Positions 1 to 59,593 of a stretch of DNA of 64,000 nt are shown here, piece by piece. A model generated the notes under the pieces. It saw only the letters and a program-made list of their open reading frames with translations, was not told where the DNA came from and ran no database searches. The stretch is taken from the sequence record PP400782; one strand, written 5' to 3'. The translations under genes and the position numbers were made by a program. How positions within the stretch are numbered: position 1 is the stretch's first letter; each line of letters begins with the position of its first letter. The DNA is from Escherichia phage FL31.

Positions 1-236
1 CGAGTGGCTAATGTGAACTCAATAAAATCCAACATGTCATCTAATTCAAGAAGACCATACGCTTGAGACCTTTCACCTGGTCCTGGCCATTTCTTAATAT
101 AATACTGGATACCACGTGCATATGTTAAACGATACACACGTTCAAGTAATTTGTTGTCCTTATTTTTCTTAAGGATTTCCTGTTTTGTTTTAGTAGAACC
201 GATCGCAGCTATTTGGTTTAAAATATCTAAAATCAT
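1..236 (-). CDS. 30: ATP-dependent DNA ligase, N-terminal fragment (gene runs off window start)
   Basis: Minus-strand ATG at 234-236 overlapping upstream stop (ATGA); hand translation MILDILNQIAAIGSTKTKQEILKKNKDNKLLERVYRLTYARGIQYYIKKW matches T4 gp30 N-terminus. Confidence 0.8.
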   Translation of the reverse strand, partial: MILDILNQIAAIGSTKTKQEILKKNKDNKLLERVYRLTYARGIQYYIKKWPGPGERSQAYGLLELDDMLDFIEFTLAT

Positions 237-502
237 TTGATGTCCTCGATTTTGGTTACGGTTCTATTATAAGCCACTTCATCTAGAAGCGATTTCAGCG
301 TTTTCTGATAAGTGGTAATCCATTTACCGAGACCTTCAACATAGTATTCTGAAATGTAGATGAACCCTTGTTCAACACACTCTTTAAATATTTCTGCGTC
401 TTTTACTAAACGAAACAACGGCCAGTCTCGAAAGAACATGTTAACGTGACCGTAGTCACGCGTTGTGTTTTTGCCATCTGTAATATCATGAACTACAAAC
501 AT
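233..502 (-). CDS. hypothetical protein (89 aa)
   Basis: ORF track; stop overlaps ligase start; no recognisable motif. Confidence 0.5.
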   Translation of the reverse strand: MFVVHDITDGKNTTRDYGHVNMFFRDWPLFRLVKDAEIFKECVEQGFIYISEYYVEGLGKWITTYQKTLKSLLDEVAYNRTVTKIEDIK

Positions 503-511
503 AATTAACCC

Positions 512-1327
512 TTAACAATTTATAGACCAAGTCCATTTGGACGAATCTAAAGGAAAGTTTTGAATCGTCCACCATGGCTGCATATCGGTTGGTCCTGGAG
601 TTCGCCAGGTATACGGATTCGACGGAGCGCCGATTTGATTAGGCCATGCGCCTGGACTTGTTGCACCAGATTCTTTAAGCAAATCCGCCAATCGTTTTAA
701 AAGGTCTTCACGATCTGAATCTGAATTATGCTCAGGTGGAACCAAACGAGATTCAATATCATCCCACGTGTGTACACGTTGTGCAGTACGAGGAATGGCA
801 TCACGTTCACCACGAGCCAACCAATAAATCGGTACATTAAGAATTTCTGCCGCATGGTCACAGTGATGAGCTAAATCGTCAACGTAACAAATCACGTTAT
901 ATTTTGTTTTAGCTAGTTCAAATAATTGTTCCTTTGACGAATCATGACCACACATCATTACTTCAGAAAAAGCGCCTGGGAACAAAGCATTCAAATTAAA
1001 TTGTCTATTCAATCGAGCATCAATTGAATCACCTAGCGCCGTCACGGCTACAAAATTATAGTCTTCTTTTAGTTTATTGATAACTCGAAGAGCATCAGAA
1101 TAAGGCGCTAAGTAACGAATAAAATCAGAGCTATTATATTTTTCTATTAATTGTTTACCAAGGTTATCGTCGGTATTGAACAGTTTACCAGGAGAAATAA
1201 ATTTTTCGTCCTGAATCATTTTTAAAATATGTTCTAATGGAAGGTTATATTTTTGGGCAAAATAAGGAAGTCCAGATTGCCAGCTTAAACATACACCATC
1301 AATATCAGTCAAAATAGTAGGCTTCAT
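512..1327 (-). CDS. HAD-superfamily hydrolase/phosphatase-like protein (271 aa)
   Basis: N-terminal DIDGV (HAD motif I); Trp/Pro-rich C-terminal tail; motif-level call only. Confidence 0.5.
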   Translation of the reverse strand: MKPTILTDIDGVCLSWQSGLPYFAQKYNLPLEHILKMIQDEKFISPGKLFNTDDNLGKQLIEKYNSSDFIRYLAPYSDALRVINKLKEDYNFVAVTALGDSIDARLNRQFNLNALFPGAFSEVMMCGHDSSKEQLFELAKTKYNVICYVDDLAHHCDHAAEILNVPIYWLARGERDAIPRTAQRVHTWDDIESRLVPPEHNSDSDREDLLKRLADLLKESGATSPGAWPNQIGAPSNPYTWRTPGPTDMQPWWTIQNFPLDSSKWTWSINC

Positions 1328-1791
1328 AAAGAGTCTCTTAATAGGTTTAACACGTCAATAAATTCATCTTCAGTTAGTATTGTATCATCTTTTGTTAGGT
1401 GGCTGGCCATGCTGTGCTTCAAAATTTTTCCTTTAGAGGCTTGTAAGGCATCACGAAACCCCTTGTTTTGGATCGCGGCTTCAAAATATGCATTTGTGTA
1501 TAATTCTTTCCACGCTTCAGAGTATCTTGAAAATGGAACTCCTAACCAGAAGAGAGTCCCACGGTCCTGAGCTCTTGCGTAAGACCTTCCAGCTTGCTGT
1601 GCAGCCAATCCAGACAACCCAAATATACGTCTTTGTTGTTCAACATTTTTCACCTTACATCCTTGGAGAAATCCTTCAAGACCTCCGAATTGAATACCAT
1701 CCATAACAAAAGGCCATTGAGCAAAGTTACTTAATGCACATGATGGCCATTTGAAATTACTTCTTATTTCTAATTCAGACATCTTTAACAC
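1324..1791 (-). CDS. NADAR (YbiA/DUF1768)-like protein (155 aa)
   Basis: LSNFAQWPFVMDGIQFGGLEGFLQGCK resembles YbiA core FSNFAAWPIKVDGKTWPTSEHYFQAQKF; 4-nt overlap with downstream gene. Confidence 0.45.
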   Translation of the reverse strand: MLKMSELEIRSNFKWPSCALSNFAQWPFVMDGIQFGGLEGFLQGCKVKNVEQQRRIFGLSGLAAQQAGRSYARAQDRGTLFWLGVPFSRYSEAWKELYTNAYFEAAIQNKGFRDALQASKGKILKHSMASHLTKDDTILTEDEFIDVLNLLRDSL

Positions 1792-1993
1792 TTATAATTT
1801 CAACATCAGCCCAATGACCGTATCCAGGTATACGGTCTTCGATAGATAAATTTCTGTCATTTTTAGGCATTTTAATTGACGTAACGTATGGTTCTAAACG
1901 GTTTTCCGCGTAATATGGAAAAACGTCGGTTACACGATAAGTAACTTCAATCATTTCCGTACCAAACAATTTCTGCATCAGTTTCTTAAACAT
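1775..1993 (-). CDS. hypothetical protein (72 aa)
   Basis: ORF track, tightly packed in minus-strand operon. Confidence 0.45.
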   Translation of the reverse strand: MFKKLMQKLFGTEMIEVTYRVTDVFPYYAENRLEPYVTSIKMPKNDRNLSIEDRIPGYGHWADVEIISVKDV

Positions 1994-1994
1994 A

Positions 1995-2189
1995 TTATCC
2001 TCGCTTTAAACATTTGATTACAGACAGTTCTTGGCTCATGCGGACGTCTTCAGTTCCATCAACCCACAGGACTGCATAGGCTTCTTTAATTAAATTACCG
2101 TTAATTTTAAAAGCAGGTAAAACCTTTGAAATCATTCCGGGGATACCTATACCTTTTAACTGGACAGTTTGTGATAAGAATAGTTGCAT
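1995..2189 (-). CDS. hypothetical protein (64 aa)
   Basis: ORF track, abuts neighbours. Confidence 0.4.
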   Translation of the reverse strand: MQLFLSQTVQLKGIGIPGMISKVLPAFKINGNLIKEAYAVLWVDGTEDVRMSQELSVIKCLKRG

Positions 2190-2509
2190 TAGAACCTCAT
2201 CTGAAATCCGTGTGATTTAACATTACCGCCATAGATGTCAGAGGTATTGACTTCACGAGCGTCGCTAGGGTCGATGTTAATATCATGGTTGAGCTTAGTG
2301 ATTGCTAGGGTGTCACGACCATTGACTGTACGGAATTCTACTGGACAAACCACATCAGCATAAGCCTTAATGGATTCACGGGTGGGCTGTTTGTCGGCAG
2401 GAACATCTTTACCTGCTTTAGAGAAAACAACTTCACAGAAATTTTTACGAGTATCGAAATAAGTGGTCATAAACATAATATTTTCCTCAATGGAGGCCGA
2501 AGCCTCCAT
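2189..2509 (-). CDS. hypothetical protein (106 aa)
   Basis: ORF track; start may be an internal Met. Confidence 0.45.
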   Translation of the reverse strand: MEASASIEENIMFMTTYFDTRKNFCEVVFSKAGKDVPADKQPTRESIKAYADVVCPVEFRTVNGRDTLAITKLNHDINIDPSDAREVNTSDIYGGNVKSHGFQMRF

Positions 2510-2517
2510 TTTTAAGA

Positions 2518-2883
2518 TTAGATATCGAATTCATTCAGAACTACATCAAAGATTGCTTCCAGGTGTTCAGGTTTAGCTCGGTTGCTCAGGATGTGACGAA
2601 TCCAAGTTTTAACCAGAAGCTTACGATTAACACCGTTCCAGCAAGGATGAGTACCTAAATCACGTTGACGGAAATCGTCATCTAATGCAATTTTGAAGTT
2701 GGAACCTTCCATCGTGATTGAAACCGTGATGCCATTTTCAAATCGCATATAAACGTAGTTAGGAGTCATGCACTGTTCGATTTCACAAACTGTACCATTT
2801 TCGTGTTTCCATAAGCAAATAACTTCAGAAGAACCAGCGATACCGTTAGAAACATATTTACGTTCGAAGTTGATGTAGTTCAT
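2518..2883 (-). CDS. hypothetical protein (121 aa)
   Basis: ORF track; early-type promoter immediately upstream at 2913-2953. Confidence 0.5.
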   Translation of the reverse strand: MNYINFERKYVSNGIAGSSEVICLWKHENGTVCEIEQCMTPNYVYMRFENGITVSITMEGSNFKIALDDDFRQRDLGTHPCWNGVNRKLLVKTWIRHILSNRAKPEHLEAIFDVVLNEFDI

Positions 2884-2912
2884 TTTATTCTCCAGATGTT
2901 TAAGTTATTTGT

Positions 2913-2953
2913 TGGTACAGGACTATAATAACATAACCTGTACCAAAGTAAAC
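2913..2953 (-). promoter_or_regulatory. early-type promoter (GTTTAC -35, 17-nt spacer, TATTAT -10)
   Basis: Minus-strand read; 8-bp inverted repeat GGTACAGG/CCTGTACC flanks the -10. Confidence 0.5.
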
Positions 2954-2957
2954 ATTT

Positions 2958-3329
2958 TTATTTGATTTTTGTCCACTTAGCTGAATCAATAACACCTTTT
3001 GCTTTAATCTTCTCAATTAATGACTCTGCGCGATTTCTGGCATTTTCGTACCATACAACATCTTCAGAGTAACCAGTTTCTTCATCTTCGTAAGTTTTAG
3101 AACGAATACAGCCATAAACTGTAGAATTCAGACGGTAAATTTCACCAGTGAAAAAGTTTTCGATTTCGATATGATAACAAAAATCGTCTGAAGGGCCGTC
3201 AGGAGTTGTACAATAAACCACATCACCTTGAACTGAACGAACCATCCACTGTAACTCGTTAACAACTTGAGATTTATATCCATCATGGTCACGGCATTTA
3301 ATTGTAGCATTTAAATTGATAGTGTTCAT
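2958..3329 (-). CDS. hypothetical protein (123 aa)
   Basis: ORF track; early-type promoter upstream at 3362-3400. Confidence 0.5.
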   Translation of the reverse strand: MNTINLNATIKCRDHDGYKSQVVNELQWMVRSVQGDVVYCTTPDGPSDDFCYHIEIENFFTGEIYRLNSTVYGCIRSKTYEDEETGYSEDVVWYENARNRAESLIEKIKAKGVIDSAKWTKIK

Positions 3330-3361
3330 TTTATTCTCCGGTTGTTTTATTGATTAGGTGG

Positions 3362-3400
3362 TACAAGTCTATAGTAACACATCCTACAGGAGAGTAAACA
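3362..3400 (-). promoter_or_regulatory. early-type promoter (GTTTAC ... TACTAT)
   Basis: Minus-strand read, upstream of ORF 2958-3329. Confidence 0.45.
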
Positions 3401-3435
3401 TCTTTTTAAACTTTTTCTGCCCTAAACGCACAAAA

Positions 3436-3453
3436 GGGAGACCGAAGTCTCCC
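3436..3453 (-). terminator. intrinsic terminator hairpin with UUCG tetraloop
   Basis: GGGAGAC-UUCG-GUCUCCC on minus strand followed by UUUUG. Confidence 0.6.
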
Positions 3454-3458
3454 TAAAA

Positions 3459-3638
3459 TTATGCAACAACCTTTCCAAAACGAGAAGCATCATCTCGAAG
3501 AACTGCACGTGCTCTGCGCATGATCTTCTCAACTGTTTGATTAATACGAGAGTTCGACCCACGCTTGTATCCAGCGCGTTTAGAGGTACCATCAACTTTC
3601 TTTTCAACTGCTTTCTTTGCTTTAGCTTGTTTTGCCAT
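3459..3638 (-). CDS. small basic protein (59 aa), below ORF-track size cutoff
   Basis: Hand translation MAKQAKAKKAVEKKVDGTSKRAGYKRGSNSRINQTVEKIMRRARAVLRDDASRFGKVVA; followed by hairpin terminator 3436-3453. Confidence 0.4.
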   Translation of the reverse strand: MAKQAKAKKAVEKKVDGTSKRAGYKRGSNSRINQTVEKIMRRARAVLRDDASRFGKVVA

Positions 3639-3902
3639 TATAAATTCTCTTTAAATGAAAATGCAGGACTTATTGACATTGCCTGCGCAAGCCCTCAAGG
3701 GGAACATAGGTTTTGGATATTTAACGACAGGATAACCATAAACCTCGTCATCATACCAACCACGTCTTAGACAGATAACCTTTTTCTGACGCGTGATAGT
3801 ACAAAATACATTCAAGAGGTACACCGTAAAACTGCCGGGGACTTAAAACTATAATGATTCGCAAATCATTAATCAGACAGTTCGACGGCTCCTCGATTTA
3901 AC

Positions 3903-4151
3903 TTACTTTAGGGTAATAACAAAATGACGAACTGCTTTACGTGCGGCAGAAGCCAAAGGCTTAGCATATTTCAGTTCATCTTTTGCTTCCAGTTCAGAGG
4001 CCAAAGCTGCCTGGACCGGGTTCAGATGTTTGAAATATCGCAGGATTTCAAGAGCTTCGGCTTCAACATCGATAGATGCGCCATAGTTTTCGTGACCATT
4101 ATTCCATGCGTTACGTTGCAGTTCAAGAGCGTGTTGTAATTGTTTAATCAT
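3903..4151 (-). CDS. rIII: lysis inhibition accessory protein rIII
   Basis: 82 aa, MIKQLQHALELQRNAWNNGHENYGASIDVEAEALEILRYFKHLNP near-identical to T4 rIII. Confidence 0.9.
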   Translation of the reverse strand: MIKQLQHALELQRNAWNNGHENYGASIDVEAEALEILRYFKHLNPVQAALASELEAKDELKYAKPLASAARKAVRHFVITLK

Positions 4152-4267
4152 TTTAAATTCTCAATTCGAGATAATATTTAGTAACCACGTTTGTCTGAAT
4201 TTCACCTTCTTTCGACAAGTCTCTCAGTTGTAGGCTACCGCTTAGAAGAGTGTTCTCTTCATATAGT

Positions 4268-4275
4268 TATTTATA
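4268..4275 (-). promoter_or_regulatory. possible late promoter TATAAATA upstream of rIII
   Basis: Minus-strand TATAAATA about 115 nt upstream of rIII start. Confidence 0.4.
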
Positions 4276-4608
4276 TCACTTATAAAGACACGGAATAGCT
4301 TTATAGTGGCATGTTACGAATTTCTGTTTAATTTCTTTAGGTTGTTTAAGTCCCAAAGCCACAAATGGATGTGGAACATTTCGAATTTGTCCAACCGGTA
4401 GTGGAGTCAAATCACCGACTTCAACAAAACCTTCAGGAACATCAGGACCTACAGAATGAACTACACATAGTTCAGGAACTTCACCTTGAACACGTTTACC
4501 AATCACAAGTCCTGATTCGGTAACTTCTTCATCACCTGCTTGAGCGGGTTCAGAAACCAGAATAACATATTCACCAACAGCACGAATTGGGAGTTGTACT
4601 TCAGACAT
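4276..4608 (-). CDS. 31: co-chaperonin (GroES-like) gp31
   Basis: 110 aa, [34 protein letters not shown]...[14 protein letters not shown] matches T4 gp31. Confidence 0.92.
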
Positions 4609-4665
4609 CTTATTTCCTTGTTGTTTGACGATAGATTAATAATACCATACTATTCGTAAAGCATA

Positions 4666-4974
4666 TTACATAAGAAGCAAACGTTCTACCGGAGTACCAT
4701 CAACCGAAATTACTTTATCAAGACGGAAAGAACGCCACTGACCTAACTTGGTATCGAATGCTCGAACTGATTCACGAGGTTCATAACGAACTTCTGTTGC
4801 CGGATTGTTATTTTCATATTTGACTTCAAGTTCATCGCGGGAAGCAAACATAGTACGAACATCACCGTTAGCCTTTTCAAATACAACACAATGAACGCCT
4901 ACAGACAGAATAGTTTTAATACGTTCACGAAGAACCATAGTTTCTTGTTCAGTTAAAATCATATTATTCACCAC
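4666..4974 (-). CDS. hypothetical protein (102 aa)
   Basis: ORF track; between cd and 31. Confidence 0.5.
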   Translation of the reverse strand: MVNNMILTEQETMVLRERIKTILSVGVHCVVFEKANGDVRTMFASRDELEVKYENNNPATEVRYEPRESVRAFDTKLGQWRSFRLDKVISVDGTPVERLLLM

Positions 4975-5545
4975 AAAAGTTTCGGATTTGTTCCCAATTC
5001 AGAGAACGAAGATTATTACGAGAGTACTGAATTACTTCAATACCAGCTTGTTTAAGAATGTCTGCCCAATTTTCAGGAGACCGGTCATATAATTCTGCAT
5101 ATACAACCTTTTTAATGCCTGACTGTGTGATAGCTTTAGTGCAATCAGGACATGGAGAAAGTGTCGTATACAACGTAGCACCTTCAATAGAATTACCTTT
5201 GCGAGCTGCAAATAAAATTGCATTCAGTTCCGCATGGATTTCGTTATTAGCAGACCATGCACTATGAGCGGCCCGATGTTCTTTAGCCAAAACAAAATTA
5301 TCTGCCCGTCCAAATGCTGTAGTGCCTTCTTTATGACCAACAACGATGACCGGGCTTGGTTTATTCTTCAACCAGCCGTTTTCGGATGCATGTTCGCAAC
5401 AGTTAACGCCACCTGAAGGAGAGCCATTATAACCTGTAGAAATAATGCGTCCATCTTTTTCAATGACTGCGCCAACTTTCCATGAACAACATTTTGATTC
5501 TTGAGAAATCAGATATGCAATCTGAAGGTATGTGCTAGCTTTCAT
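4964..5545 (-). CDS. cd: dCMP deaminase
   Basis: 193 aa; zinc-binding HAELNAI and SPCPDCTKAI motifs; same length and position as T4 cd. Confidence 0.9.
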   Translation of the reverse strand: MKASTYLQIAYLISQESKCCSWKVGAVIEKDGRIISTGYNGSPSGGVNCCEHASENGWLKNKPSPVIVVGHKEGTTAFGRADNFVLAKEHRAAHSAWSANNEIHAELNAILFAARKGNSIEGATLYTTLSPCPDCTKAITQSGIKKVVYAELYDRSPENWADILKQAGIEVIQYSRNNLRSLNWEQIRNFCGE

Positions 5546-6537
5546 TATTGAACCTTATTAATATAAGTTAACAGCTCTTTAGTTTGTTCCCAACTGATGC
5601 ACGCATCGGTAACGGAAACGCCATAGGACATATTATCAGAAATTTTTTGATTTCCTTCATGTAGGAATGATTCTATCATAATTCCTTTGACCAAATCATT
5701 AGCTGCTAAATTTTTACCAATACCAATTTGATTGCTATAATGCCCAGCAGCGTTTGCATGGCTACAGTCAACCATTACATAATGATTCAGACCTACTGCC
5801 CTTGCTTTGTTAGAAGCTTCTTGAATATCAGAAGAATGATAGTTCGGACCGTTGGTCCCACCACGCAATACGATATGCGTATTCTGATTACCTTCAGCTT
5901 CAACAATGCCTACAGTACCATCGACGTCCATACCCATATACCGATGAGGCCAGGCGGCACTATACATCGCGTCTGTAGCTACTTTAATAGAACCATTGGT
6001 TGCGTTCTTGAAGCCTACGCACATCGGTAGACCTGAAGCAATTTCACGATGTGTCTGGCTTTCAGTAGTACGGGCGCCAATAGCAACCCATGAGAAAATA
6101 CCAGAAAGATACTTAATCGTGAATGGGTCTAATACTTCAGTTGCTAATGGAAGTCCCATACGTAGAAGTTTACGACACAATGTTCGTGCAACTATAAGAC
6201 CGTGGTTCATATCAAAACTTCCGTCAAGATATGGATCATTTACAAGACCTTTCCAACCTACGGTAGTTCGAGGCTTTTCAAAATAAACGCGCATCACTAA
6301 CAGAACATTAGGAAGACGAGTTTGAAGTTCAGCCAGACGTTTGCCGTATTCAACAGCAGCAATAGGGTCATGAATTGAACAAGGACCTACAACAATAAGT
6401 TTGCGTGGGTCTTCACCGTTCATAATCGAATTAACTTGTTCGCGATGAGAAGCCACTTGTGATGCGTAAGCTTCCGACAAAGGAATAATCTCAGCCAGTT
6501 CTTTTGGAGAAATAAGTTTTCCGACGACAGGTAACAT
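5545..6537 (-). CDS. 3-deoxy-D-arabino-heptulosonate-7-phosphate (DAHP) synthase-like protein, class I AroG/AroF/AroH type
   Basis: 330 aa; VVGPCSIHDP, MRVYFEKPRTTVGWKG, GARTTESQ, VGFKNAT, ILRGG, ESFLHEGNQ, SVTDAC align with E. coli AroG; stop overlaps cd start by 1 nt. Confidence 0.75.
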   Translation of the reverse strand: MLPVVGKLISPKELAEIIPLSEAYASQVASHREQVNSIMNGEDPRKLIVVGPCSIHDPIAAVEYGKRLAELQTRLPNVLLVMRVYFEKPRTTVGWKGLVNDPYLDGSFDMNHGLIVARTLCRKLLRMGLPLATEVLDPFTIKYLSGIFSWVAIGARTTESQTHREIASGLPMCVGFKNATNGSIKVATDAMYSAAWPHRYMGMDVDGTVGIVEAEGNQNTHIVLRGGTNGPNYHSSDIQEASNKARAVGLNHYVMVDCSHANAAGHYSNQIGIGKNLAANDLVKGIMIESFLHEGNQKISDNMSYGVSVTDACISWEQTKELLTYINKVQ

Positions 6538-58933: not shown

Positions 58934-59593
58934 TTAACCTCGATTCATAAATGCATTAAATATTTGGTCATCAACAGAAATTTCTAATTCGACTTCAATT
59001 GCTTCAGCCTTTTCTTCAGGTGGTAATTCGTATCCACACACTACAATTTTTTCATCGATATCAAAATATACAGAAGCAATACGATTAATGTTATTTTCAG
59101 TTAAGTCCAAATCAACATCAACATCTTTTTGGCCTACACTTAGAGGATAACTAATACGGGTTATTTTATTATCTTTAACAAAGAGTCCACCAACATACTC
59201 TGTACTGCGTTTGAAGTTTACACGTTTCCGAATTGAAAGATATGATACATCTTTACCGTGAGCTCGGCTCATAGGACATAATGAATAGCTAGAATAAGAG
59301 ATGTCAAATCCTACACCTTCAATATGAGCCAACGCGTCATGATTAAACCAATTATAATCATATGCCAAATCCATTATATTGTAATATGTGAAAGGCACTG
59401 GATTAACATCATATGTTGTACCTTTAAAATCAGCCCAGGCAACGATTTCGTTATCTTTAACAATTACAAAAATTACACCAATATGGTATCCGTTATTATT
59501 TTCATTCGGCGTTATATTATAACATTGTGCATTAGGAAATTTACCATATTTAAATGGTGCGTTTTTGTGCATGTAATAAATCATATTATTCAC
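58934..59593 (-). CDS. hypothetical protein (219 aa)
   Basis: ORF track. Confidence 0.5.
   Translation of the reverse strand: MNNMIYYMHKNAPFKYGKFPNAQCYNITPNENNNGYHIGVIFVIVKDNEIVAWADFKGTTYDVNPVPFTYYNIMDLAYDYNWFNHDALAHIEGVGFDISYSSYSLCPMSRAHGKDVSYLSIRKRVNFKRSTEYVGGLFVKDNKITRISYPLSVGQKDVDVDLDLTENNINRIASVYFDIDEKIVVCGYELPPEEKAEAIEVELEISVDDQIFNAFMNRG

Follow-up and report, generated by a model that had tools for sequence, protein, structure and literature searches.

The window analysed here (64,000 nucleotides of Escherichia phage FL31, sequence record PP400782) carries an intact orthologue of the T4 gene adfN (gene 30.3), whose product belongs to the phage branch of the NADAR superfamily and is a minimal form consisting of the core alone. 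Family membership, fold, catalytic residues, an open frame and a pattern of purifying selection can all be read directly from this DNA. The enzymatic activity, the guanine specificity and the role in counter-defence would carry over from published work on the T4 protein, to which the product is 96% identical and like which this allele would be expected to behave. Taken together, it is very probable that the phage's AdfN reverses the ADP-ribosylation of guanines that the bacterial toxin DarT1 inflicts on phage DNA.

The adfN Locus and Its Surroundings

The original prediction had placed an open reading frame at 1324-1791; it is present on the minus strand, with its 5' end corrected by 9 nt. The ORF list of the window gives the frame as 1324..1791 and, if a GTG is taken as start, 155 aa, position 1791 being the end of an in-frame GTG that lies upstream of the adfN ATG. 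The ATG at 1782 (MSELEI..., 152 aa) is more likely to be the start than the GTG, because the T4 and Bas46 orthologues, both genes of 459 nt, align from that ATG without indels. The features of the gene are the following:

1324..1782, minus strand: adfN (gene 30.3), encoding a 152-aa phage-type NADAR protein; start codon ATG at 1780-1782, stop codon TGA at 1324-1326
1654..1737, minus strand: N-terminal NADAR core motif (ALSNF...EGFLQ..K), residues 16-43, from the family alignment and the profile alignment to YbiA
1675-1677, minus strand: codon of the catalytic E36, read from the sequence
1654-1656, minus strand: codon of the catalytic K43, read from the sequence
1414..1416, minus strand: codon of H123, a histidine on the last beta-strand (strand 120-123 of the model), invariant in the family
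1327..1371, minus strand: C-terminal residues 138-152, intact here; the model puts the last helix at 138-151

The genes around adfN lie on the same strand and are closely packed: its stop (TGA, 1324..1326) shares the sequence ATGA with the ATG of gene 30.2, and at its other end the stop of gene 30.4 overlaps its start by 8 nt. Their order is that of the T4 30-to-cd region (ligase, 30.1, 30.2, 30.3, 30.4 ... rIII, 31, cd). A scan of positions 1..5000 for promoter and terminator consensus sequences gave counts not above shuffled expectation and no minus-strand terminator; on the operon boundaries it is otherwise silent. Within adfN, T4 has an internal out-of-frame ORF called 30.3', equivalent to about 1419..1646 (minus strand) of the window, whose frame meets a stop after 34 codons both here and in Bas46. 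This ORF is not conserved and probably does not represent a true gene, and 30.3' was rejected as a second product of the locus since the stop codon breaks its frame in both phages.

Over its first 4,700 bases the window is 96.5% identical to the BASEL phage Bas46 (ChristianSchoenbein, Mosigvirus); with RB69 the figure for these bases is about 95%. Gene 30.5 (1995..2189, minus strand) is found here and in Bas46 but is missing from this place in RB69, which makes for a minor mosaic difference among phages of the genus. The gene for dCMP deaminase is followed immediately by a full-length gene for a type-I DAHP synthase (5545..6537, minus strand; TIGR00034 aroFGH, 427 bits with a cutoff of 173; PF00793, E=6e-75), the first enzyme of aromatic amino-acid synthesis. 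Bas46 has it too, as a 'putative aldolase', while small cd.x ORFs occupy the site in T4 and RB69. In T4 and Bas46 the gene of the ADP-ribosyltransferase Alt lies five genes from adfN, past 30.2, 30.1, ligase and alt.1, a location just beyond the left end of the window, so that an enzyme that adds ADP-ribose and one that removes it are near neighbours in these two phages.

Family Membership, Fold, and Proposed Mechanism

The AdfN sequence matches the Pfam family PF08010 (Bacteriophage protein GP30.3) with E=2.1e-69 and 232 bits, the gathering cutoff being 36, over positions 1-138 of a profile of 138; such a match is far beyond chance. It also matches PHROG 652. A search with PF08719 (NADAR, DUF1768), which had been proposed as a check, is negative if taken literally, since AdfN as a single sequence gives no match to that profile at E<=1 and its direct match is to the sister family PF08010. 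The link to PF08719 is nonetheless valid at the level of the family, though not for the single sequence, because 23 of 60 full-length gp30.3 homologues match the profile (best E=1.5e-7) and AdfN alone does not. Similarly, a PDB sequence search with AdfN alone returned nothing relevant, and E. coli YbiA (PDB 2b3w) was found only through a family profile made from the alignment of the 60 homologues (E=0.009, over the SNFA...E..Q..K segment).

The original prediction of a NADAR (YbiA-like) protein is borne out by the PF08010 match, the predicted fold and the catalytic residues. Its NADAR-like core is found in the product as ALSNFAQWPFVMDGIQFGGLEGFLQGCK, and the two features whose absence it had named as fatal are both there: the predicted structure is that of the NADAR/YbiA fold, a helical core flanked by small sheets, and E36 and K43 are present and, like H123, invariant in the 60-sequence alignment. 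All the residues that are invariant in that alignment are kept here, and the profile alignment pairs E36 and K43 with E48 and K55 of YbiA. The protein consists of the core domain only: of its 152 aa, 15 precede the core motif, and there is no N-terminal extension.

In a DarTG1 host, the DarT1 toxin would ADP-ribosylate guanines in the phage DNA and block its replication. AdfN would then hydrolyze the N-glycosidic bond between ADP-ribose and guanine, yielding free ADP-ribose and a restored base, and with the base restored the phage could replicate. The residues E36, K43 and H123 would together form the ribose-binding catalytic centre, and full activity would require the C-terminal helix.

Most of this scheme has an experimental counterpart in T4. 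The gp30.3 proteins of phages have been treated as a separate NADAR family, a bioinformatic classification that two papers trace to de Souza and Aravind in 2012 (PMC11543638, PMC11125620), and phage NADARs are now counted as one of four NADAR families (PMC12945103, 2026). Purified T4 gp30.3 hydrolyzes guanine-ADPr and not thymine-ADPr (PMC11125620, 2024). The gene was renamed adfN in a subsequent study, which found that T4 and T2 need it to resist DarTG1 and that it is enough to make RB69 resistant, and in which purified AdfN alone stripped ADPr from DNA in vitro (PMC11825919, 2025). The T4 AdfN mutants E36A and K43A are impaired: both substitutions, as well as an RB69-type truncation, reduce rescue in vivo, and E36A abolishes ADPr removal in vitro (PMC11825919). 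DarTG2 is not countered by AdfN (PMC11825919). The proposed reversal of DarT-type DNA ADP-ribosylation consequently stands for guanine-ADPr (DarT1/DarTG1), as shown for T4 AdfN, and fails for thymine-ADPr, the DarT2 modification (PMC11825919, PMC11125620).

There is, however, a complication. T4 gp30.3 gives no rescue from DarT1 toxicity in uninfected cells (PMC11125620, PMC11825919), and the full effect of AdfN is seen only in T-even infection, non-T-even phages being only partly rescued; a T-even factor is said to be needed (PMC11825919). These two results imply that the mechanism in vivo has some additional requirement.

The Neighboring Gene 30.2

The gene that overlaps the end of adfN has two parts:

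512..1327, minus strand: gene 30.2, encoding a HAD-superfamily hydrolase core (about residues 1-195) followed by a W/P-rich tail that is disordered and hypervariable; the gene starts with an ATG that shares the sequence ATGA with the stop of adfN
512..742, minus strand: the W/P-rich C-terminal tail of gp30.2, about 70 residues, with pLDDT below 50 for most of residues 227-271

The predicted structure of gp30.2 is a Rossmann-like HAD fold with a cap, and the four HAD motifs (DxD, T/S, K, DD) are represented by D8, D10, K132, D150 and D151, which are invariant among 48 homologues, and by T96, which is nearly so. Comparison with curated HAD profiles gave no match above threshold, and a literature search on gp30.2 returned nothing relevant. 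The tail is hypervariable, with 40% nucleotide identity to T4 as against 77% for the HAD core; a GIEYL..QPT ending is common in gp30.2 relatives, and the RB69-type tail of this phage is without it.

The original prediction had seen in the ORF at 512-1327 a HAD-type phosphatase, operonic with adfN, that could process the released ADP-ribose. The ORF, its HAD-type character and its operonic position are upheld by the fold, the motifs and the ATGA overlap; the processing of ADP-ribose is unsupported, both because the pairing of the two genes is not conserved outside T4/RB69-type phages and because of the chemistry of HAD enzymes. The substrates of HAD phosphatases are phosphomonoesters, and no such group is present in free, intact ADP-ribose: it is a pyrophosphate diester, which would have to be cleaved by a Nudix enzyme before any HAD phosphomonoester chemistry could follow.

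We regard it as very unlikely, for these and other reasons, that AdfN and gp30.2 form a two-enzyme module, whether gp30.2 dephosphorylates or detoxifies the released product or, in a variant of the idea, is the T-even factor for full AdfN activity. The ATGA overlap of the two genes does recur in T4 and in Bas46, the catalytic motif set and the fold of gp30.2 are complete, and the literature calls for an extra T-even factor (PMC11825919). Moreover, the Straboviridae genomes with 30.3 and those with 30.2 are almost the same set (1,510 and 1,439 records), but this co-occurrence is equally well explained if both are simply near-core genes of the Straboviridae. A survey of 80 viral loci with gp30.3 homologues speaks against the module: 59 of them (four of which end early downstream) have no 30.2 within about 4 kb, and the two genes lie 0.7-1.7 kb apart in seven more. 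Direct adjacency is found in T4/RB69-type relatives (at least 84% identity) and in one locus with 48% identity. Among the Straboviridae genomes with both genes, Aeromonas phage B614 has them more than 100 kb from each other. The neighbors in the 80 loci were also clustered; no conserved partner emerged, and the idea that the gp30.3 family has one was rejected. Finally, removal of ADPr from DNA in vitro needs AdfN alone (PMC11825919). Very unlikely, too, is the more specific proposal that the T-even-specific factor behind full AdfN activity in vivo is the translationally coupled gp30.2 with its disordered and hypervariable tail, which might bring AdfN to replicating phage DNA or stabilise it there, or else remove a product.

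AdfN Compared with Other NADAR Proteins

The role assigned to YbiA is the hydrolysis of riboflavin intermediates. It is very unlikely that AdfN is, in the same manner, a metabolite-repair N-glycosidase acting on such intermediates, or that it is a general hydrolase with a main natural substrate different from DarT1-modified DNA, such as guanine-ADP-ribosylated RNA or the products of the phage's own ADP-ribosyltransferases. E. coli YbiA and AdfN do have their fold and N-terminal motif in common, a phage NADAR also removes G-ADPr from RNA in vitro (PMC12945103), and the gene of the ADP-ribosyltransferase Alt is only a few genes off in T4 and Bas46. Alt, however, is annotated as a mono-ADP-ribosyltransferase acting on the host RNA polymerase, that is, on protein and not on guanine bases. 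Furthermore, the deletion of adfN in T4 and T2 has as its phenotype a specific loss of DarTG1 resistance (PMC11825919), and the glutamate on the last strand that defines YbiA is replaced by histidine throughout the phage family (our alignment; PMC11125620).

This last-strand position separates these NADAR types, the histidine being the phage signature, as opposed to glutamate in the YbiA type and aspartate in the DarG1 type (PMC11125620, PMC11543638, PMC12945103). E. coli YbiA (2b3w) and the Phytophthora NADAR (8bau), with 18-20% identity to AdfN, have the glutamate, and DarG1 proteins (e.g., the Geobacter lovleyi NADAR 8bat and the E. coli C7 NADAR) the aspartate, where AdfN has His123. AdfN further differs from DarG1 in that it has neither an N-terminal extension nor an adjoining DarT1 toxin (the six neighboring ORFs scanned gave no ADP-ribosyltransferase match, and adfN is flanked by 30.4 and 30.2), and in that its T4 orthologue is unable to replace DarG1 in uninfected cells.

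An Intact Allele in an RB69-Like Genome

The protein encoded here is identical to T4 gp30.3 at 146 of 152 residues (96%) with no indels, and it resembles it also in its length, its E36/K43/H123 set, its place between 30.4 and 30.2 and its overlapping junctions. The six substitutions (K11R, E89P, I120V, M125I, H128G and D139A) are conservative to moderate and spare E36, K43 and H123; two of the positions concerned, H128 and D139, are close to where the last strand lies and the C-terminal helix begins. There are four differences from the Bas46 orthologue. Nucleotide similarity to Bas46 is lower across adfN (93.5%) than across neighbors such as 30.2 and 30.5 (about 98-99%). Compared with T4, the DNA of adfN is 89% identical, with 51 nucleotide differences, and 43 codons are changed, 37 synonymously and 6 non-synonymously, which indicates that the gene has been under long-standing purifying selection. 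A recent transfer as the source of the 96% protein identity to T4 was rejected because the DNA identity is only 89% and synonymous codon changes outnumber the others 37 to 6.

That the gene is intact is of note in an RB69-like window, given that the 30.3 of RB69 is broken. The two phages have a genus-level genome background in common and 95% DNA identity across the gene. RB69 alone has a single extra T, in column 429 of the alignment, which is gene position 411 and falls between window positions 1371 and 1372; translation of its gp30.3 ends after T137 and the last 15 residues are lost. This insertion at nucleotide 411 has been reported to truncate 15 residues and to make RB69 uniquely sensitive to DarTG1 (PMC11825919). 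The insertion is absent from the window, where adfN reads through to the overlapping start of 30.2. The exact RB69 frameshift sequence and its intact counterpart both had zero matches in IMG/VR, so that this search is silent on the frequency of the broken allele. In several T-even genomes or contigs, gp30.3 occurs as truncated fragments of 86-126 aa, or PF08010 is fused to PF11097, PF06919, PF06019 or PF26911. These forms look like frameshift or deletion derivatives, and with gp30.3 fragmented in other T-even genomes RB69 may not be the only phage to have lost adfN.

That the copy described here is itself decayed and non-functional, as in RB69, is extremely improbable: the window is indeed RB69-like (95% DNA identity for adfN, 96-99% for other shared genes save rIII, 30.4 and 30.6, at 74-90%) and truncated or fused PF08010 fragments do exist in other T-even genomes, but its 152 codons are open without the RB69 insertion, its invariant residues are all kept and its substitutions follow the pattern of purifying selection.

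AdfA and the Anti-DarT1 Repertoire

The window also contains the other published anti-DarT1 factor:

58937..59584, minus strand: adfA (gene 61.2), matching PF23813 (AdfA) with E=1.8e-119

Its product is 99% identical to RB69 gp61.2 and has R164, where T4 has histidine. The R164 form of AdfA is reported to be inactive, as against the H164 form, yet Bas46, the nearest relative, and Bas47, which both have R164, are reported as DarTG1-resistant (PMC11825919). The phage thus differs from T4, a Tequatrovirus with H164 AdfA, in being a Mosigvirus (RB69 group) with R164 AdfA. Since its AdfA is of the inactive type, the phage presumably relies on AdfN against DarTG1, and AdfN would be the chief factor of this kind here, just as in Bas46 and Bas47.

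Discussion

The role of adfN has already been demonstrated experimentally in T4, and the finding adds nothing new in this respect: the family goes back to a bioinformatic definition of 2012, for which PMC11543638 gives the citation, and its action against DarTG1 was demonstrated in 2024-2025. In practice the finding is of use for annotation and prediction. With an intact adfN and an inactive-type adfA (R164), the phage should resist DarTG1 through AdfN alone, unlike RB69, and the state of adfN and adfA is a useful marker in choosing or engineering T4-like phages for use on DarTG1 hosts. The finding also touches on the identity of the additional T-even factor that AdfN needs in vivo.
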